A stretch of DNA of 64,000 nt, from the NCBI GenBank assembly GCA_012522735.1, contig JAAYJU010000106.1, forward strand, positions 34,095 through 98,094, given 5' to 3'. This document shows, in pieces, positions 15,012 through 37,214 of the stretch. A program made the translations under genes and the position numbers. The DNA is from Clostridiales bacterium. GTDB taxonomy: Bacteria > Bacillota > Clostridia > Lachnospirales > Lachnospiraceae. Numbering within the stretch: the first letter of the stretch is position 1; every line of letters starts with the position of its first letter. Below the pieces are notes generated by a model. The model was not told where the DNA came from, made no database searches, and saw only the letters and a list, made by a program, of their open reading frames with translations.

Positions 15012-15920
15012 TTAGTCGGACTTAGACCAGGACACATGATTTTTTAATAGTTCTCGTCCTTTTTTATTTCTAATATTCTGATATGAGGGATAATGGACGT
15101 AAATCGCCTCATCCTTTTGAAGCTTAATAATCCTATTCATTAGCTCCTTAAGCTTAGGGTCATAGACAAGCTTTACTCTACCAGTTTCAAATATATCCTT
15201 GAGCCCTGTAAAGGCACTTGCCAGAAAAATAACATTCAAATCCTCTTCGTAGATAATAATCTCTGAATGTTTTGAAAGAGATAGTAACTCATTTATATGA
15301 TACCCAAAACCTAATCCATATATAATATATCTCTTAACCTCTTTATTATACCAATATCTTGCAAGCATGAAAGCCTCTGTTGGTATTCTACCATTAGTAT
15401 GAAAATAGAAGGAATCCTTTCCGTTTTTTGCGGCAAGGGTCATTAAGCCGGAGGAAGAAAACTCTACTCTATAGCCTTCCATAAGAAAGGTCTGAGGGTC
15501 GATAGATTGGTCTAGTAATCCTTCCAGCCCTAAACTAGAGCTCTTAAGCACCTTAAGATTCTCATTATAGCTTTTCTCGTCAAATGTAACCTCCTCCTTG
15601 CTAATAATCAGCTCCTGGACGCCTATAATAAAGCTAACCAGCTGAAGTTCAAGTAAATCCGCAAGGAGGATATAATCTCCCATTTTGTATGCTTCCAAAA
15701 CTCCGCTTAACATTTCCATTACAGAATCTGTGGAAACTAGATTAAAATACTCTTTGTTATCAATAATCGCTTCTATGGAATACCTAATAAGATCCATCGA
15801 ATCTGCAATAATACCAAGAGCAAGATCATGTCGCTGCTCACGAAAATAATAAATAGCCTTATCTGCCTGCCCTAGCAAATCAATATTATTATAAAATATA
15901 GTCTTTATCTTATCTGTCAT
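15012..15920 (-). CDS. Maf-related protein: small helical domain fused to a Maf N-terminal domain, no DUF115 catalytic region
   Basis: N-terminal ~105 aa has LEAYKMGDYILLADLLE, like MKALEIGDTILFSDIFE in 36011-36328. C-terminal half has YIIYGLGFGYH..IIIYE, like VSMYGLGNGIF..LIIYE in the Maf at 34135-35973. Confidence 0.55.
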   Translation of the reverse strand: MTDKIKTIFYNNIDLLGQADKAIYYFREQRHDLALGIIADSMDLIRYSIEAIIDNKEYFNLVSTDSVMEMLSGVLEAYKMGDYILLADLLELQLVSFIIGVQELIISKEEVTFDEKSYNENLKVLKSSSLGLEGLLDQSIDPQTFLMEGYRVEFSSSGLMTLAAKNGKDSFYFHTNGRIPTEAFMLARYWYNKEVKRYIIYGLGFGYHINELLSLSKHSEIIIYEEDLNVIFLASAFTGLKDIFETGRVKLVYDPKLKELMNRIIKLQKDEAIYVHYPSYQNIRNKKGRELLKNHVSWSKSD

Positions 15921-31033: not shown

Positions 31034-32092
31034 TTAAGTATTGTCTCTCAGCCTCACCAATGCTGGCTCATAATCTCCACACTTATTATAATAAGTCTTC
31101 GCTTTATCCACTAATCCGAGGCATTCATATATCACTCCAATATTATAGTATGCCCTGTAGCTATTTACACCGTCCATCTTATGGAACTTCATCTTGGTAG
31201 CCTTGATAAATTCATCAATGGCCTCTGTAAACTTTGCATTGTTCATATATATTAGACCCATCAGATATACAAAATCAGCACTTATGGCAAATTCATCGTA
31301 TACACCTAGTAGCTGCATAGATTTCTCATACTGTTTAGAGTTAATAAGTGCATAACCGTAGCTCTCTACCATATCCTGAACATACTCTAGCCTAATATCC
31401 AGATCAAAATATAAGGCCTTGTCAAACCAACTACAGGCGGCTTCATAATCCTCCTGCATATAAAAAGATTTACCTAATTGATAAAGTATATAAGGGTCAT
31501 CCCCATCATCCTCAAGCTGCTGTAAAAGAATTGTAATATTTCTGTTTGTCTTTTTTTTTCTTGTCTCTAAGTCTCCATCATAACCTCTATGATCAACCTC
31601 CACCGGTATATCATAATAATAGCTTTCCAAATCTTTGATTGGACCAGGCTGTTCATGTATTTTCCCTTTATATTCATATAAATCCTTAGAGAATAGCCTA
31701 CCTACCCGGTTATTGATTCGGAAGGTTTCTCCGTCCCTTATAAAGCTATTCTTCTGAACAAGTCTACCAACACCATCCGGGTTTTCTCTGATAAGTCTCT
31801 CCAGCTCATCCTTATCAAAATAATCAGCTACTTCGTCGCTATCTATTACAAGTACATACTTATTAGTTGCCTTACTAACACTATAATTTCTAGCTGCAGA
31901 AAAATCCTGTCTCCAGATATAATCATAGACCTTATCGGTATATTTCTTGGCAATCTGCTTTGTATTATCAGTTGAACCAGTATCTACTACTATTACTTCA
32001 TAGCCTAATGGTAGTAATGGTTCTAGACATTGTCCCAATTGTTCTTCTGAATTCTTTACAATCATACATATTGAAATCATTATACTACCCAT
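31034..32092 (-). CDS. GT2 glycosyltransferase with TPR repeats (candidate flagellin O-glycosyltransferase)
   Basis: ISICMIVKN, VDTGSTD, DFSAARN, IDSDE, IHEQP, then TPR-like YQLGKSFY, YLMGLIYM and YNIGVIYE. Confidence 0.85.
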   Translation of the reverse strand: MGSIMISICMIVKNSEEQLGQCLEPLLPLGYEVIVVDTGSTDNTKQIAKKYTDKVYDYIWRQDFSAARNYSVSKATNKYVLVIDSDEVADYFDKDELERLIRENPDGVGRLVQKNSFIRDGETFRINNRVGRLFSKDLYEYKGKIHEQPGPIKDLESYYYDIPVEVDHRGYDGDLETRKKKTNRNITILLQQLEDDGDDPYILYQLGKSFYMQEDYEAACSWFDKALYFDLDIRLEYVQDMVESYGYALINSKQYEKSMQLLGVYDEFAISADFVYLMGLIYMNNAKFTEAIDEFIKATKMKFHKMDGVNSYRAYYNIGVIYECLGLVDKAKTYYNKCGDYEPALVRLRDNT

Positions 32093-32135: not shown

Positions 32136-32816
32136 TTATTTGTTCAGTTCTCTTTGCTTCATTAATTCCTCTACAATAAGCCAATCACTAATCTCGTCAA
32201 TTTCAAAATAAGTTTCTTCATTCATTTCTACAGCTACTATTCTTCCTGATATCCTACATCTATTCTCTAATAATAATTTCTTTGAAGTAATATAGAAAGC
32301 ACCATTTTCAACTAAGTAGCCATCAAATTCTTGGCGCCTTGGTCTTGAAAAAATATCATAATTCTGGGGCTTTACATATCCACCTTGATTATTCCAAATA
32401 AATCTTTTCTGTCTTACTACAGATAAAACACTATCTACATCATCCTTGTAATATTCCTCAATTCCCTTGCATAGATCCTCAGCAGAAAGTAAGGGTGAGG
32501 TTGCTTGTATCAATATGATATCATCGAAATCATATTGCTCGGCAAACTCTAGCATAACACTCTCTGTACTAGCTGTGTCTGTTGCATTTTCCGGATCTCT
32601 TCCTATAACTCTGACATTCTCAAATCCAAAGCTATTAACTGTATCTGAAATCTTCTGACTATCCGTAGCAACATAAACTTTATCGATCCCAGAGCAATTA
32701 TGTGCTGCAAGAACCGTCCAATATACCAAAGGCTTACCATTAATAATTCTTATGTTTTTTAGTGGTATCGATTTACTTCCACCTCGAATTGGGATAAACG
32801 CTACCATATTTTTCAT
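32136..32816 (-). CDS. neuA: Acylneuraminate/ulosonic acid cytidylyltransferase (NeuA family)
   Basis: FIPIRGGSKSIPLKNI, VATDS, IQATSPL, ENGAFY, EIDE..D. Confidence 0.88.
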   Translation of the reverse strand: MKNMVAFIPIRGGSKSIPLKNIRIINGKPLVYWTVLAAHNCSGIDKVYVATDSQKISDTVNSFGFENVRVIGRDPENATDTASTESVMLEFAEQYDFDDIILIQATSPLLSAEDLCKGIEEYYKDDVDSVLSVVRQKRFIWNNQGGYVKPQNYDIFSRPRRQEFDGYLVENGAFYITSKKLLLENRCRISGRIVAVEMNEETYFEIDEISDWLIVEELMKQRELNK

Positions 32817-32840
32817 ACTATTACCTCATAATTATGAAAT

Positions 32841-33722
32841 TTATATTCTGTATTTTAACTTATCTCTTTGCTCTTGCTCTATAGGCAATATTTCATTAGA
32901 TTTATATGATAAACTCTCATATGTAGCCAGTAAATTTCTTTTTAGTCTACGTATACCATCCGGCTCTAAGGATGCTGCATGATCAGTACCCTTCCATGTC
33001 CTATCTAAAGTAAAATGCCTTTCTATCACAGAAGCTCCAAGAGTGTATGCCGCAATATCAATCGCAAACCCATTATGATGTCCTGAAAATCCGATTTGCT
33101 TAACCATTGATCCATATGTATTAACCAGCCTGGTTATTTCTAAAAGACATACATCCTTAAATGGAACAGGATAACCAGAGGTACATGAATATAATACTAA
33201 ATCCTTATTTCTGCCCTTAGATTCAAATAATCTCACAATCTTTTCTTCTTCTTCTCTTGTAGTCATTCCAACCGATATATGTATTTCTCCCTCAAAATTA
33301 TCACATAGCCAAGATAGCATGTTGAAATGATTGTTGCAAGCACTAGGTATTTTAATCATTTTCGGGTTAAATGCTACGATTTCTTTGGCTGAAGTCATGT
33401 CCCAAACAGATGTCGAATACTCAATTCCAATTTCCTTGCATTTTTCATATAATTCCTTATGTTGCTCAGCATTAAACTCCAAGAACTCTCTATGCTCGCC
33501 ATATGTAGTCCCATATGAATTATGAGGATTAGGATGAGGTGCATTATATTGTTCAGGCGTTAATAATTCGACGTTATTTCTTTTCTGAAACTTAACCACA
33601 TCAGCATCACAAAAGATTTTTGCCATTTTTATCATCTCTACTGCAATATCTAAATCTCCTTTGTGATTACATCCAATCTCAGCAATAACCTTTGGGGATT
33701 TATATTCTAACGTTTTATTCAT
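32841..33722 (-). CDS. neuB: NeuB-family PEP-dependent ulosonic acid synthase lacking the C-terminal SAF/antifreeze domain
   Basis: IAEIGCNHKGD, ADVVKFQKR, IKIPSA, CTSGYP, GFSGH, IERHFTLDR..GTDHAASLEP. Ends just after the TIM barrel. ATG at 33722 chosen from RBS (ORF track 33731). Confidence 0.85.
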   Translation of the reverse strand: MNKTLEYKSPKVIAEIGCNHKGDLDIAVEMIKMAKIFCDADVVKFQKRNNVELLTPEQYNAPHPNPHNSYGTTYGEHREFLEFNAEQHKELYEKCKEIGIEYSTSVWDMTSAKEIVAFNPKMIKIPSACNNHFNMLSWLCDNFEGEIHISVGMTTREEEEKIVRLFESKGRNKDLVLYSCTSGYPVPFKDVCLLEITRLVNTYGSMVKQIGFSGHHNGFAIDIAAYTLGASVIERHFTLDRTWKGTDHAASLEPDGIRRLKRNLLATYESLSYKSNEILPIEQEQRDKLKYRI

Positions 33723-33736
33723 ACAAACCACCTTTC

Positions 33737-34114
33737 TTATCCAAAATATTTATATAGCATTTCCAATGACAACATTCTATCATCCACATAATAATCTGCA
33801 TTTGGTTTTCCAAAGTGGAGCTCATGATACTTTAGTTCCCATCTAGACATCTGGTCTTTCGTAACAGAAGACCAATCTATCCCAGTAACATAGCCTCTTG
33901 CAGTAAATAACACTATATAATTACCCATATCATATAACTTGTTTATTATATTAATCATAGGTATGTTAGGCTCAGCCAGCTCATAGTTATTATCCTTAGC
34001 TTGATTTGCTATTACCCCATCTATATCAAACACAAATCTTCTACCACCATGTGAGATGTTCATATAGTCTTCTTTAATCTTATTTTCTAGGTGTTTAGAA
34101 TAATCTATATTCAT
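33737..34114 (-). CDS. Small HAD-superfamily phosphatase (capsule-biosynthesis phosphatase type)
   Basis: VFDIDGVI (DxD), LFTARG, GKP.ADYYVDD. Confidence 0.8.
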   Translation of the reverse strand: MNIDYSKHLENKIKEDYMNISHGGRRFVFDIDGVIANQAKDNNYELAEPNIPMINIINKLYDMGNYIVLFTARGYVTGIDWSSVTKDQMSRWELKYHELHFGKPNADYYVDDRMLSLEMLYKYFG

Positions 34115-34134
34115 TCAAGTCTCCTTAATATAAA

Positions 34135-35973
34135 TTAATTACCACTTATTTCTTTATAGTTATCAATTGTTTCCAGCAATGCCTGTTTAATAAATTTGGA
34201 TGTATCAATTGTAGCCTGATATATTATTTTAGACTTCTGGAATGTGCTCAGATTGTAATCCTCCGAATCGTCAGATAGAATCAACATTTCTGAAAGTTGA
34301 GGGGCAGTTTGAGCAGTAATATGATAATCCATAAGTGGATATATACTCTGCTCCTCTATAAACTTATTTACCTTACTTAGCTTCCTTAATGCTTCATTTA
34401 GTTTTTTGCTTGACAAGCCTCTTTCATATTCCCTAATAACATTATTACATTTTCTAATTGCAGACTCCGCTTCATCTAATATACTGTTCATAATAGGCAC
34501 ATAGCCTTCAAGATAATCTATTATTTTCCCAATGTCCTTCCTGTAAAAGATTGGTTCAATGTTAAACAAATCCTCATTTTCCATATGTATTTCTCTACAA
34601 TACCTAGCAACTGCTTCTTTTAGAGGCATTACAATAGTCCCCTTTATTCTAGCTCCCCTCTCCTTTGCATCTATTACCTCTATATCGTTATTTAAAGCTA
34701 TTAAGTCCTGATATCTATTCACAAATTCCTTCCAATCAACTCTTGATTTTATCATACTGCCATCAATGCCCTCTACCATAACATTGGCTTCTTCTCCTTT
34801 ATTGTTAATTTCACCTCCGACATGGCTGACATTTCCATTAAAAGCAAGATCCTGTCCAACTAATATCACTCTCTTATATCCCAGTTCTACACAAGCAGTA
34901 TATGCAACAATTGCAACTGATCCACTAGTAGTAATTTCAGATGCTTCCTTATTAACCAAATCATATATTCCATTCAGGAAGGGATTACTTGTACAGAATA
35001 TTTTTTTTCCAATATGACGACTTAATATATCATTATTAGCTTCCATAGTACATATTAAAGGAATATTAACATCATCTCTTCGTGAAAAATGAATTAGTTC
35101 CTTTACAGGGTCAATTGTAACAGTGAAATCCGGTTCTAATCCATAGTCCAAAAGATAATCTAGAACCCGGTCACAAGCAAATATAACTGCTTTACCCTTA
35201 GCCTTTTTTAGTTCTTCAATATTTTCTTCAACTGAAGGCCCTGCTGCTACTACTATGGCAGGCACTTCTTTTGGTGTATATTTTTTTAATTCTTTTAAGT
35301 TGCTTGAATCAATTAAATAAGTCAAATTTTTAAATATATTTTGTATATATTTTTCACTAAGCTTTATTGTCGTATTAATATTTAAAGTATTAGATACTAG
35401 GCCTTCTTTAATCTCATTAAAAAAAGTTATACAGCTTTCTGCAAATATCTTATCATAATTAGGATAAATACATTGAATTTGCGACTTCATATTTGTGATA
35501 TTGATTGCACTTTTAACTGTAATATGAAAAGAGAAATCGTTAGCTCCTTCAACTGCAATCACAACTCTTTTATCCGATAGTATTTCTGATAGATCATAAT
35601 TCTTAATTACATGGCTAAAAATATCATAGCTCGGCTCATATATGATTAGTAAGTGACTTTCTTCCATTTTCCTTAATAATGCTCTAGCAAAGATTCCATT
35701 GCCAAGACCGTACATTGAAACAACTGTATTAATGTTTTGTAAGGTAAATTGGTCACTCCATCTTATTGCTTCTTCAATTGGTCTATAGATACTATTCAGT
35801 CTATATGTCATTGCCTTATAGGTAATCGAAACAATCTTCTCTCCATCCTTGGCATAAATAGTCTCTATATTATCTAATCTATTAGTATAATTATTATCAT
35901 TATTTATAAGATTTTTGTATAAATAACTGTGATTATTTTCTATCAATTCCATGTTTTTATTATAAAAGGTCAT
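34135..35973 (-). CDS. maf: Motility-associated factor (Maf, DUF115) flagellin glycosyltransferase
   Basis: PAIVVAAGPSV..NI, VTIDP, GSVA..A..LG..RVILVGQDLAF; located just downstream of fliC. Confidence 0.88.
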   Translation of the reverse strand: MTFYNKNMELIENNHSYLYKNLINNDNNYTNRLDNIETIYAKDGEKIVSITYKAMTYRLNSIYRPIEEAIRWSDQFTLQNINTVVSMYGLGNGIFARALLRKMEESHLLIIYEPSYDIFSHVIKNYDLSEILSDKRVVIAVEGANDFSFHITVKSAINITNMKSQIQCIYPNYDKIFAESCITFFNEIKEGLVSNTLNINTTIKLSEKYIQNIFKNLTYLIDSSNLKELKKYTPKEVPAIVVAAGPSVEENIEELKKAKGKAVIFACDRVLDYLLDYGLEPDFTVTIDPVKELIHFSRRDDVNIPLICTMEANNDILSRHIGKKIFCTSNPFLNGIYDLVNKEASEITTSGSVAIVAYTACVELGYKRVILVGQDLAFNGNVSHVGGEINNKGEEANVMVEGIDGSMIKSRVDWKEFVNRYQDLIALNNDIEVIDAKERGARIKGTIVMPLKEAVARYCREIHMENEDLFNIEPIFYRKDIGKIIDYLEGYVPIMNSILDEAESAIRKCNNVIREYERGLSSKKLNEALRKLSKVNKFIEEQSIYPLMDYHITAQTAPQLSEMLILSDDSEDYNLSTFQKSKIIYQATIDTSKFIKQALLETIDNYKEISGN

Positions 35974-36010: not shown

Positions 36011-36328
36011 TTATAATATATCAGCATTAATAGCCTCAGTAAATAGCTCCTTCAACTCATATTCAAAGATATCAGAAAAAAGGATTGTATCGCCTATTTC
36101 CAAGGCCTTCATAGCTTGCATTAATATTTCATTCAATTTTACTTGATCTACTATTGTTTCATCTCCATTTTGTGCTTGATCAGATATGGCACTAGTAGTA
36201 TTGTTCAATACTATTAGTGTATTTTCTAGCTCCTTATACCCTTCTTCTGTTTTGTTTTGATAAAATAAATTTGTTACTTTACTAATCGCTTCAATCGCTT
36301 CTTTTAGATTTTTCTTAATCATATTCAT
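36011..36328 (-). CDS. Small helical hypothetical protein of the flagellar glycosylation locus
   Basis: 105 aa amphipathic helices; DTILFSDIFEYEL motif shared with the N-terminus of 15012-15920. Confidence 0.65.
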   Translation of the reverse strand: MNMIKKNLKEAIEAISKVTNLFYQNKTEEGYKELENTLIVLNNTTSAISDQAQNGDETIVDQVKLNEILMQAMKALEIGDTILFSDIFEYELKELFTEAINADIL

Positions 36329-36348: not shown

Positions 36349-36375
36349 AAAGGACTGACTTAAAGTCAGTCCTTT
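36349..36375 (-). terminator. Intrinsic terminator after fliC
   Basis: Perfect 12-bp stem AAAGGACTGACT-taa-AGTCAGTCCTTT; the minus strand ends in a T6 run. Confidence 0.85.
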
Positions 36376-36395: not shown

Positions 36396-37214
36396 TTACT
36401 GTAATAATGCAAGTACACCCTGTGTCTGTTGATTAGCCTGAGCAAGCATAGATTGTGCAGCCTGTTGAAGGATAGTATCCTTTGCAAAGTTAACCATCTC
36501 TTTTGCCATATCAACGTCACGGATACGAGCTTCGGCAGCCTGTAAATTCTCAGCGGTATTATCTGCATTTGCAATTGTATGCTCTAACCTATTCTGTAAT
36601 GCTCCAAGAGCAGATCTCTGAGTAGATACATTGTCAAGAGCAGTCTGAATTGTGGATATCGCACCAGTAGCACCAACGTGAGATAATACTGCAGATGCAA
36701 CACCTGTAATTGATAATGCAGATGCTCTCATGTCATTAATGCTGAATGTTATAATCTGACTTGTGTTAGCTCCTACCTGAAGATTCTTGGATGAGAAAGT
36801 ACCATCTAATAACTTCATGGTATTGAATTCAGTCTGATTTCCTATACGAGTCACTTCATCAGTTAATGCTGTTAACTCTTTCTGAATAGCCTGACGGTCT
36901 GCTGATACGTTAGTATCATTAGATGCCTGAACAGCAAGCTCTCTCATTCTCTGAAGGATAGACTGTGTCTCATTTAGAGCACCTTCTGCTGTCTGAATTA
37001 AGGAGATACCGTCCTGAGCATTTGTTGATGCCTGGGAAAGACCTCTGATCTGTCCGCGCATCTTCTCGGAAATTGTAAGTCCAGCTGCATTGTCGCCTGC
37101 ACGGTTAATCTTATAACCAGATGACAATTTCTCTGTAGCCTTAGCAATATTTCCTGTGGTAATACCTAACTGTCTGTTTGTGTTGGCTGCTGCCATGTTG
37201 TGTTGAATAATCAT
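36396..37214 (-). CDS. fliC: Flagellin (short, 272 aa)
   Basis: MIIQHNMAA, EKLSSGYKINRAGDNAAGL, LQRMRELAVQ, RSALGALQNRLEH, ILQQAAQSMLAQAN. Confidence 0.98.
   Translation of the reverse strand: MIIQHNMAAANTNRQLGITTGNIAKATEKLSSGYKINRAGDNAAGLTISEKMRGQIRGLSQASTNAQDGISLIQTAEGALNETQSILQRMRELAVQASNDTNVSADRQAIQKELTALTDEVTRIGNQTEFNTMKLLDGTFSSKNLQVGANTSQIITFSINDMRASALSITGVASAVLSHVGATGAISTIQTALDNVSTQRSALGALQNRLEHTIANADNTAENLQAAEARIRDVDMAKEMVNFAKDTILQQAAQSMLAQANQQTQGVLALLQ

Follow-up and report, generated by a model that had tools for sequence, protein, structure and literature searches.

The locus described here raises the question of which sugar acid a Maf-type flagellin glycosyltransferase could use when no amino-sugar route accompanies it, and where that sugar acid would end up. 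The window (the whole stretch of DNA analysed, 64,000 nucleotides) derives from a Clostridiales bacterium of the Lachnospiraceae. A sequence-only reading of it had proposed that a phosphatase-containing pathway supplies Maf with a non-aminated ulosonic acid, possibly Kdn. This relative of sialic acid is not reported from flagella in the searchable literature.

Gene order behind the flagellin gene

Four consecutive genes for Maf, a small HAD phosphatase, a NeuB lacking the SAF domain and NeuA had been recognized on the minus strand, and all four are in place in the following set of features.

36396..37214, minus strand: flagellin FliC, 272 aa (PF00669, E 5e-45; PF00700, E 1e-25), the presumed acceptor
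36349..36375, minus strand: strong terminator-like hairpin 3′ of fliC, a 12-bp stem with a T run behind it on that strand
36011..36328, minus strand: 105-aa four-helix-bundle protein (AF2 pLDDT 91.7; helices 3-23, 27-53, 62-77 and 81-101)
34135..35973, minus strand: Maf-type flagellin glycosyltransferase, 612 aa (PF01973 MptE-like, E 1.1e-38)
33737..34114, minus strand: small capless HAD phosphatase, 125 aa, the presumed Kdn-9-phosphate phosphatase
32841..33722, minus strand: SAF-less NeuB-family synthase, 293 aa (PF03102, E 4.3e-66), the presumed Kdn-9-phosphate synthase
32136..32816, minus strand: putative CMP-Kdn synthetase NeuA, 226 aa (PF02348, E 1.9e-24), a NeuA domain alone
31034..32092, minus strand: GT2 + TPR glycosyltransferase, 352 aa (PF00535 and TPR matches), a second candidate flagellin-directed transferase

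The order from flagellin through the four-helix protein, Maf, HAD and NeuB to NeuA is close-packed, with gaps of 14-24 nt separating the maf, HAD, NeuB and NeuA genes. No terminator-like site was found within the gene run on the minus strand from the post-fliC hairpin down to position 31034. A separate Clostridiales MAG (locus L010) is fully syntenic with the window at 62-84% protein identity, which shows that the genes did not come to lie together by chance; the flagellins of the two loci are 90% identical.

Synthase, synthetase and their characterised relatives

The NeuB open reading frame was listed as 32841-33731, but the ATG at 33722, preceded by the ribosome-binding site AAAGGTGG, is its real start. 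The protein stops where the NeuB domain stops, and its catalytic residues (EIG.NH, KxQ, SxH and ERHFT) align with those of N. meningitidis NeuB. Over an alignment of 287 aa that spans its full length, it shares 63% identity with the Kdn-9-phosphate synthetase of Prymnesium parvum (CAMPEP_0191217894). The sequence-only reading had asked for a phylogenetic placement, and in a maximum likelihood tree the two enzymes fall in one Kdn-9-phosphate synthase clade with 99/96 support, with BT1714 of Bacteroides thetaiotaomicron as its sister and N. meningitidis NeuB, PseI and a Leg-cluster NeuB all outside. The P. parvum enzyme, the only characterised member of this SAF-less clade, converted mannose-6-phosphate (Man-6-P) as the sole substrate among seven tried and rejects ManNAc-6-P and Ara-5-P (PMC6200933). 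The window NeuB is thus presumed, from its sequence, to be a Kdn-9-phosphate synthase using Man-6-P and PEP. Of the two products envisaged earlier, Kdn-9-phosphate is favoured by the clade and by the identity to a Man-6-P-specific enzyme, while an octulosonate phosphate is unlikely.

NeuA, in which a phosphatase domain is absent, has PpNeuA of P. parvum as its best PDB match (9t4z, E 1.4e-54), followed by murine CMAS (E 1.3e-34), and is 45% identical to this Kdn-specific CMP-Kdn synthetase. Its Arg188 aligns with the gate-keeper Arg196 of PpNeuA, where the exchange R196L shifts preference from Kdn to Neu5Ac (PMC12934254). The gate-keeper is present in 49 of 50 aligned NeuA-type sequences (the window, PpNeuA and NeuA of SAF-less NeuB loci) and is missing in NeuA of three other nonulosonate clusters. 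These features support the prediction that the window NeuA is a CMP-Kdn synthetase.

The Bacteroides Kdn route had been taken as the model, and its three-step logic is indeed shared: a synthase acting on Man-6-P (BT1714), a HAD phosphatase (BT1713) and a CMP-synthetase. The closest characterised enzymes are, however, those of P. parvum, since BT1714 (346 aa) is just 33% identical to the window NeuB; the cytidylyltransferase neighbouring the B. thetaiotaomicron genes gave no BLAST match to the window NeuA, and those genes, unlike the ones described here, are not flagellar. P. parvum and the window have in common a SAF-less synthase of about 300 aa, a NeuA-type synthetase with the Arg gate-keeper, the Man-6-P start and the 9-phosphate intermediate. 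They differ in that P. parvum is a eukaryotic alga whose PpNeuA carries a C-terminal membrane anchor and for which no dedicated phosphatase is known, whereas in the window a putative bacterial operon combines a dedicated HAD with a Maf transferase behind flagellin.

Presumed transfer to flagellin and removal of the phosphate

The Maf of the window is the single one encoded in the 2.82-Mb assembly (92% complete). It has no TPR domain and is Maf-2-like, scoring 112.8 bits against the PseD domain model NF050051, under the 670-bit cut-off, and matching PDB 5mu5 with E 1.5e-5. An MptE-like catalytic domain, and a maf gene beside flagellin and a CMP-nonulosonate pathway, are common to the window and the known Maf systems (Campylobacter, Aeromonas, Shewanella Maf-1 and Maf-2 + GlfM, Clostridium botulinum CbMaf and Geobacillus). 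According to PMC11339370, the known native donors in those systems are Pse or Leg derivatives, and Neu5Ac and Kdo are transferred by Maf in engineered hosts only; in the window, by contrast, the sole donor pathway present is that of Kdn. Mafs of different Kdn islands share just 25-62% mutual identity, and donor specificity is not readable from the Maf sequence. From the gene context we infer both donor and acceptor, and presume Maf to be a CMP-Kdn:flagellin transferase; the short central region of FliC contains Ser/Thr. The earlier proposal that Maf puts a non-aminated ulosonic acid on flagellin is strengthened by the recurrence of Maf and Kdn genes in other flagellin islands of Clostridia that hold no Pse/Leg genes (L010, L022 and L071), and flagellin, four-helix protein, Maf and HAD occur together in L079 and L081.

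The 105-aa protein has homologues between flagellin and Maf in L010, L079, L081 and L022, of which those in L079 and L081 have a precomputed match to PF26154 (DUF8042), and D80 and D86 are invariant among six homologues. A small four-helix partner is likewise found in GlfM/Maf-2 systems (GlfM is described in the preprint 10.1101/2023.12.03.569772), although its gene lies downstream of maf there and upstream in the window. The protein is a candidate GlfM-like partner bridging Maf and flagellin, and is probably part of the transfer step.

CMP-Kdn might also be made without Kdn being the sugar linked directly to protein, if the GT2-TPR enzyme, which has an FgtA/GmaR-like architecture, started a glycan to which Maf or a TagF-like 491-aa protein added Kdn as an internal or capping residue. 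Both the GT2-TPR and the TagF-like protein could accept CMP-Kdn or initiate the glycan; the GT2-TPR gene lies directly behind NeuA and is conserved beside the Kdn genes in L010 (74%) and the L071 island (46%), and the island encodes many tailoring enzymes. We nevertheless regard this as unlikely: characterised Mafs modify flagellin Ser/Thr directly (10.1101/2023.12.03.569772 and PMC11339370), the presumed flagellin-bridging protein adjoins Maf, and L022, L079 and L081 combine Maf with Kdn genes or the HAD while a GT2-TPR homologue is absent from the stretches read.

The HAD protein matches known families weakly (TIGR01689, E 9.6e-5 and 22 bits against a cut-off of 162 bits; PF25109, E 2.6e-4), yet motifs I-IV (D30, D32, T71, K103 and D111-D112) are all kept in its family. 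Its nearest solved relative is AfhF of phage HY126 (PDB 9iqw, E 8.6e-10, Foldseek TM 0.63), which, like the EcbF/BcbF phosphatases of TIGR01689, shares with it a capless core of about 125-135 aa and all catalytic motifs. AfhF is a Mg-dependent phosphatase taking the terminal phosphate off a sugar bisphosphate; it is just 31% identical to the window HAD, and its substrate is arabinofuranose-1,5-bisphosphate (as a C5-phosphatase) in a DNA-modification pathway.

A fusion of NeuA to a KdsC/BT1713-like phosphatase domain, found in about 36 of 47 related loci, is the dominant bacterial architecture beside SAF-less NeuB. Such loci resemble the window in the NeuA domain (41-76% identity in most loci), the partner synthase and the gate-keeper Arg, but the window NeuA is without the C-terminal KdsC-like domain, in place of which an unrelated HAD is encoded by a gene of its own. 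Among the 47 loci, the combination of short NeuA and small HAD is confined to the window and the syntenic L010. BT1713 is a KdsC-type HAD to which the similarity of the window HAD is undetectable, and no BT1713-like or KdsC-type phosphatase was found in the whole genome (92% complete). The suggestion that the small HAD replaces the usual KdsC-type phosphatase is thereby corroborated; we propose a non-orthologous displacement by a different HAD family, and infer that Kdn-9-phosphate is the substrate.

Homologues of the HAD adjoin NeuA/NeuB genes, or fragments of these, in seven of the eight contexts read; some carry an in-frame NeuA C-terminal remnant, and one is fused to a mannose-6-phosphate-isomerase domain next to NeuB. 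Since homologues are also found with other NeuB subfamilies, and one in a cluster without a nearby NeuB, the family is not Kdn-specific. This last cluster, the bisphosphate substrate of AfhF and a CDP-alditol module in the island would fit a HAD serving another island step, on a sugar bisphosphate or alditol-phosphate, with a housekeeping phosphatase acting on Kdn-9-phosphate as assumed for P. parvum, where a dedicated phosphatase homologue was not found (PMC6200933). Such a role is quite improbable, given that the HAD gene is flanked by Maf and NeuB at distances of 14-20 nt and turns up precisely where NeuA lacks the fused KdsC domain, and given the company that its homologues keep.

Precursor supply and proposed pathway

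A search for neuC, pse and leg genes beyond the window had been advised, and their absence from the window was found to extend across the 2.82-Mb assembly (259 contigs), which at 92% completeness does not amount to proof. In this assembly there is no UDP-GlcNAc 2-epimerase (PF02350 Epimerase_2), no NanE, no DegT-type aminotransferase (PF01041 matches are weak, partial PLP-enzymes, at most 46.6 bits) and no PseB-type dehydratase (PF02719 matches are weak, generic SDR proteins, at most 51.6 bits). The only further PF03102 match is a DAHP synthase beside a prephenate dehydrogenase. ManA is present, encoded elsewhere in the genome.

It is very unlikely that another ulosonic acid is made, be it Neu5Ac (starting from ManNAc-6-P), Kdo (from Ara-5-P) or an acid of the Pse/Leg type via genes in the unassembled 8%. 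The best NCBIfam names for the proteins (NeuB/NnaB and PseF, both far under their cut-offs), the incomplete assembly and the acceptance of several donors by Maf enzymes (PMC11339370) could be read that way, but NeuB and PseI structures are matched at low identity (E about 1e-20 to 1e-23), the genome has no ManNAc or ManNAc-6-P route, the P. parvum orthologue refuses the alternative substrates and Neu5Ac is kept out of PpNeuA by its gate-keeper Arg. Equally hard to credit is Kdn destined for a teichulosonic-acid-like cell-wall or capsular polymer with fliC adjacent by accident: the majority of loci that hold this NeuB, in Bacteroidota and many Lachnospiraceae, are surrounded by polysaccharide glycosyltransferases with flagellar genes absent, and TagF-like, LicD and TarI-like genes occur in the island, but the Kdn genes stand between fliC and other flagellar-island genes directly behind Maf, this layout behind flagellin is repeated in independent genomes, and no flippase, polymerase, initiating phosphoglycosyltransferase or exporter was noticed among the ORFs at 14-36 kb in a partial domain check.

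The four genes and the upstream 105-aa gene probably form a flagellin-glycosylation operon, judged from sequence, in which CMP-Kdn would be made de novo and used on flagellin. ManA would supply Man-6-P, which the SAF-less NeuB would convert with PEP to Kdn-9-phosphate; the 125-aa HAD would then take off the 9-phosphate, doing the job of the NeuA-fused KdsC/BT1713-type phosphatase, and the short NeuA would activate Kdn to CMP-Kdn. Maf, probably aided by the GlfM-like four-helix protein, would transfer Kdn to flagellin Ser/Thr in the cytoplasm before export, and downstream enzymes of the island may lengthen or decorate the sugar.

Organisation of the gene run behind the flagellin gene

The genes of this region are all encoded on the minus strand. 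The sequence-only reading of four consecutive genes, maf, a small HAD phosphatase, a neuB lacking the SAF domain and neuA, was borne out by the open reading frames and their domain matches, and the run is delineated as follows.

Features behind fliC, in window positions.
36396-37214, (-): flagellin FliC, 272 aa, Flagellin_N/C
36349-36375, (-): hairpin 3' of fliC, 12-bp stem and T run
36011-36328, (-): 105-aa protein, four-helix model
34135-35973, (-): Maf, 612 aa, PF01973 E 1.1e-38
33737-34114, (-): small HAD, 125 aa, HAD motifs
32841-33722, (-): synthase NeuB, 293 aa, PF03102 E 4.3e-66, no SAF
32136-32816, (-): CMP-synthetase NeuA, 226 aa, PF02348 E 1.9e-24
31034-32092, (-): GT2-TPR transferase, 352 aa, PF00535 and TPR

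The start of NeuB was placed at the ATG at 33722 behind the ribosome-binding site AAAGGTGG, where the ORF list had a GTG at 33731, and an identical protein in the database also has 293 aa. From Maf through HAD and NeuB to NeuA, neighbouring genes are separated by 14-24 nt, and a terminator-like site was not found between any of these four. Another Clostridiales MAG (L010) has FliW and, further along, FliC, the 105-aa protein, Maf, HAD, NeuB, NeuA and GT2-TPR in the same order, at 58-90% protein identity to the window. Since the order is kept in a separate MAG, the adjacency of these genes is not a matter of chance. The island behind fliC (14000-36000) has a GC content of 0.31-0.36 versus about 0.36-0.41 for most of the flanking sequence, and NeuB of this SAF-less Kdn type is patchily distributed, being found in 7 of 201 sampled genomes of the same family. 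Both observations fit horizontal acquisition.

Predicted synthesis of CMP-Kdn

NeuB gives no match to the SAF domain PF08666, and the 312-aa Kdn-9-phosphate synthetase of the alga Prymnesium parvum is likewise SAF-less. Aligned to N. meningitidis NeuB, the window protein has the catalytic and metal-binding residues at the E, K, H and ERHFT positions; solved NeuB and PseI structures match it at E 1e-20 to 1e-23, and in NCBIfam the NeuB/NnaB and PseI models are matched below threshold. With the P. parvum enzyme, whose sequence was translated from the coding sequence in the supplement of PMC6200933, the window NeuB shares 63% identity over 287 residues with 3 gap positions. Of seven substrates offered, the algal synthetase converted Man-6-P alone; ManNAc-6-P, Ara-5-P and unphosphorylated sugars were not turned over (PMC6200933).

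A maximum-likelihood tree placed the window NeuB and the P. parvum enzyme within a SAF-less clade (support 99/96) that has BT1714, the Kdn-9-P synthase of Bacteroides thetaiotaomicron, as its sister (85/86); the NeuB of N. meningitidis, a PseI and a NeuB from a Leg cluster lie outside. NeuB thus groups with a characterised Kdn-9-P synthetase and apart from the other synthase types, in agreement with the KDN-like pathway first postulated. Members of the SAF-less clade are 59-84% identical across Bacillota, Bacteroidota, Verrucomicrobiota, Actinomycetota, Myxococcota, Pseudomonadota and Saccharibacteria. BT1714 (L087:6472-7512) has 346 aa and shares about 30-33% identity with its P. parvum and Clostridia counterparts, which implies that Kdn-9-P synthase activity sits in two well-separated NeuB subfamilies. 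The analogy with Bacteroides that the sequence-only reading had drawn consequently stands for the logic of the pathway but not for its closest characterised relative: BT1714, at 33% identity and with its greater length, was rejected in favour of the algal enzyme. NeuB is a predicted Kdn-9-P synthase of the P. parvum type, which would form Kdn-9-P from Man-6-P and PEP.

P. parvum has a Kdn-specific CMP-Kdn synthetase, PpNeuA, whose structure (9t4z) is the best solved relative of the window NeuA (E 1.4e-54), followed by murine CMAS (E 1.3e-34), with bacterial NeuA and KdsB structures far behind these two, and NeuA aligns over its full length with 9t4z and 1qwj and has the CTP_transf_3 fold with the motifs for binding CTP and metal. 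Arg196 of PpNeuA acts as a substrate gate-keeper: it forms a bond to O5 in Kdn, the N-acetyl group of Neu5Ac clashes with it, and its exchange for Leu (R196L) switched preference from Kdn to Neu5Ac (PMC12934254). Once the offset between the PDB chain and the published numbering had been fixed with Thr89, Gln110, Leu164, Lys165 and Tyr183 of PpNeuA, Arg188 of the window NeuA was found to align with Arg196 (NRCRISG versus HKCRLGE), at a position where murine CMAS has Leu. Of 50 aligned NeuA-type sequences (the window NeuA, PpNeuA and the NeuA adjoining SAF-less NeuB genes), 49 have the gate-keeper Arg, which is missing in the NeuA proteins encoded by three other nonulosonate clusters. By fold and gate-keeper residue, NeuA is predicted to be a Kdn-specific CMAS.

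The supply of precursors was assessed in the genome assembly of 2.82 Mb in 259 contigs, which is 92% complete and to which the absences reported here apply. ManA is present (200.5 bits, cut-off 116), and Man-6-P should for this reason be available. The absence of NeuC, Pse and Leg genes noted for the window was found to extend to this assembly: it has no Epimerase_2 (NeuC/WecB), no genuine DegT-type aminotransferase (partial matches of at most 46.6 bits) and no PseB/LegB-type dehydratase (generic SDR matches of at most 51.6 bits). A ManNAc-6-P route via NanE was rejected since the same search found no NanE, and a second NeuB was discounted, the sole other PF03102 match being a DAHP synthase. 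Altogether, no route to ManNAc, ManNAc-6-P or Pse/Leg precursors was found in an assembly from which 8% of the genome is missing. The CMP-Kdn-type pathway proposed from the sequence is supported by both the enzyme comparisons and the comparative genomics, and these genes very likely direct the synthesis of CMP-Kdn.

The small HAD phosphatase

All four HAD motifs, I-IV (DxD, T, K, DD), occur in the small HAD within a core of roughly 100 aa, and its AF2 model (pLDDT 83.8) is a HAD core that lacks a cap. An alignment of 34 family members shows no variation at D30, D32, T71 and K103, and conservation of at least 90% at D111 and D112. In structure as well as in sequence the HAD comes closest to 9iqw (sequence E 8.6e-10) and 1xpj (E 9e-4), both retrieved by Foldseek with probability 1.00 and TM 0.60-0.63. 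The former is AfhF of phage HY126, a Mg-dependent enzyme that takes the C5 phosphate off arabinofuranose-1,5-bisphosphate (PMC13326640). Against TIGR01689 the HAD scores 22.3 bits, below the curated cut-off of 162, and on sequence grounds it is assigned to a subfamily related to, but separate from, TIGR01689. Membership in the KdsC/YrbI family (HAD C0), to which the Kdn-9-P phosphatase BT1713 of B. thetaiotaomicron belongs, was rejected: BLAST detected no similarity to BT1713, and Foldseek gave E 0.08-0.4 for the KdsC/BT1713 structures 3e81 and 1k1e, far behind 9iqw and 1xpj. The HAD may nevertheless work like this family without being a member of it.

The strongest argument for a role of the HAD in the pathway is comparative. 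The usual partner of SAF-less NeuB in many phyla is a bifunctional NeuA::KdsC-like protein of roughly 380-400 aa (L011-L059, e.g. L037:8869-10023). Of 47 related loci that encode NeuA, about 36 have this fusion; their NeuA has 371-446 aa, and its C-terminal domain is 28-55% identical to BT1713. In a few other related loci a BT1713-like gene is separate. A short NeuA together with the small HAD was seen only in the window and L010 among the related loci compared, and tblastn found no BT1713-like or KdsC-type sequence in the genome of the window. The suggestion that the small HAD replaces the customary KdsC-type phosphatase is thereby supported, the KdsC-like domain being absent from NeuA and genome and the HAD present.

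Eight contexts of small-HAD homologues were read. The flagellar locus L079 has the order FlgN, flagellin, four-helix protein, Maf, Maf, HAD, and L081 the order FliD, FliS, FlgN, flagellin, four-helix protein, Maf, NeuA fragment, HAD. The HAD adjoins NeuA fragments in L077 and L073 and lacks NeuB or NeuA nearby in L074. In L076 (481-1925) a 210-aa fusion of HAD and mannose-6-phosphate isomerase (PF01050) lies directly upstream of a SAF-less NeuB of 271 aa that is 33% identical to that of the window. The capsule loci L078 and L080 encode NeuA, HAD and then a NeuB::cupin fusion only about 25% identical to the window NeuB. Behind this 496-aa fusion come a methyltransferase and a KpsS/KpsC-like protein (L078:3551-6114, L080:5306-7832), and these loci look like an uncharacterised phosphosugar-dependent ulosonate pathway. 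In several family members the HAD is preceded, in frame, by the C-terminal 30-60 residues of a NeuA domain, which suggests NeuA::HAD fusions or their leftovers. The family is not exclusive to Kdn clusters, given the NeuB::cupin fusions, the 33%-identical NeuB and the one NeuB-less context. Judged by the contexts and the NeuA segments, it seems to be a general partner of nonulosonate pathways that depend on phosphosugars, employed here on the Kdn pathway, and the window HAD is probably a Kdn-9-P phosphatase.

Maf and the proposed transfer of Kdn to flagellin

Maf is the only Maf in the assembly and is encoded beside flagellin and the CMP-nonulosonate pathway. Its MptE-like (DUF115) domain spans residues 212-379, it has no TPR domain and is thus Maf-2-like, and its 112.8 bits against NF050051 (PseD) do not reach the curated cut-off of 670. 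Independent flagellin islands in a genome of the same family (L071) and a Lachnospiraceae MAG (L022) combine Maf with a SAF-less NeuB and a NeuA::KdsC fusion. Their other genes encode glycosyltransferases, methyltransferases, a pyruvyl transferase and SAM synthetase, and no Pse or Leg enzymes were found in either island. CMP-Kdn is assigned to Maf mainly because Maf and the Kdn genes are constant across islands and the other genes variable. From this gene context, Maf-mediated glycosylation of flagellin with Kdn appears rather likely. Maf proteins of Kdn islands were not drawn as a recognisable subgroup, since mutual identities of 25-62% are too low and the sequences too few. A second, longer flagellin gene lies outside the window on another contig of the same genome (C237:695-2296); its N- and C-terminal ends are 57% and 45% identical to FliC, and its product could also be a substrate of Maf.

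The 105-aa protein encoded between FliC and Maf is modelled by AF2 as a four-helix bundle (pLDDT 91.7). Homologues lie between flagellin and Maf in L010, L022, L079 and L081, with Asp80 and Asp86 invariant among homologues. A Pfam search of the protein gave no usable match, and homologues carry a precomputed DUF8042 label. GlfM is a cis-encoded four-helix factor with a critical conserved Asp that lets Maf-2 bind flagellin (preprint 10.1101/2023.12.03.569772). By this description the 105-aa protein resembles GlfM and is a candidate for such a partner, although in the window its gene adjoins maf in an order reversed from that of GlfM systems. At the far end of the island a 302-aa protein (15012-15920, minus strand) aligns over its first ~105 residues with the four-helix protein, and its residues 191-272 match PF20157 (Maf_flag10_N, E 8e-7). 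No MptE-like catalytic domain was found in it, and the protein resembles a GlfM-like module joined to a Maf N-domain.

Genes for SAM-dependent methyltransferases, a pyruvyl-transferase-like protein and SAM synthetase were observed beside Kdn genes in other Maf/Kdn flagellin islands (L022:3276-5945, L022:8803-9984, L014:7262-8011), which hints at O-methylated or pyruvylated Kdn in such organisms. Protein-linked Kdn, if it is formed in the organism of the window, could in turn carry alditol-phosphate and pyruvyl decorations, for which genes lie downstream.

A Kdn pathway has been described from B. thetaiotaomicron and from P. parvum; for flagellin, nonulosonate glycosylation and the Maf enzymes that perform it are documented with Pse and Leg derivatives. 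In engineered hosts, a C. botulinum Maf is described as accepting Neu5Ac and Kdo (PMC11339370). When a database of bacterial glycans was surveyed in 2021, Kdn was recorded in polysaccharide structures only, mostly from environmental bacteria (PMC7845648). As the sequence-only reading had supposed, no report of Kdn on flagellin was found in the literature on Kdn or deaminoneuraminic acid with flagellin, flagella, Clostridium or Lachnospiraceae. The distinguishing feature of the window is its phosphatase, which is not homologous to the usual one. We tentatively propose, as a possibility short of probable, that Kdn rather than Pse or Leg is the native Maf donor in scattered Clostridia including this organism, and that the HAD founds a new family of Kdn-9-P (ulosonate-phosphate) phosphatases.

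In commensal Clostridia, flagellins are major antigens for innate (TLR5) and adaptive immunity. If the proposal is true, the HAD family has displaced the KdsC-type domain and is elsewhere fused to NeuA or mannose-6-P isomerase. As a compact candidate Kdn-9-P phosphatase, the small HAD would form with synthase and synthetase a three-gene CMP-Kdn cassette for glycoengineering. It would likewise follow that Maf enzymes with natural Kdn specificity exist, and that native, non-aminated Kdn is a third class of flagellin nonulosonate beside Pse and Leg and the first class of Kdn-glycoprotein in bacteria. On flagellin, bacterial Kdn would occupy an abundant surface protein, a new setting; humans carry antibodies against Kdn-glycans (PMC7845648), and the question is raised whether such bacteria may contribute to them.
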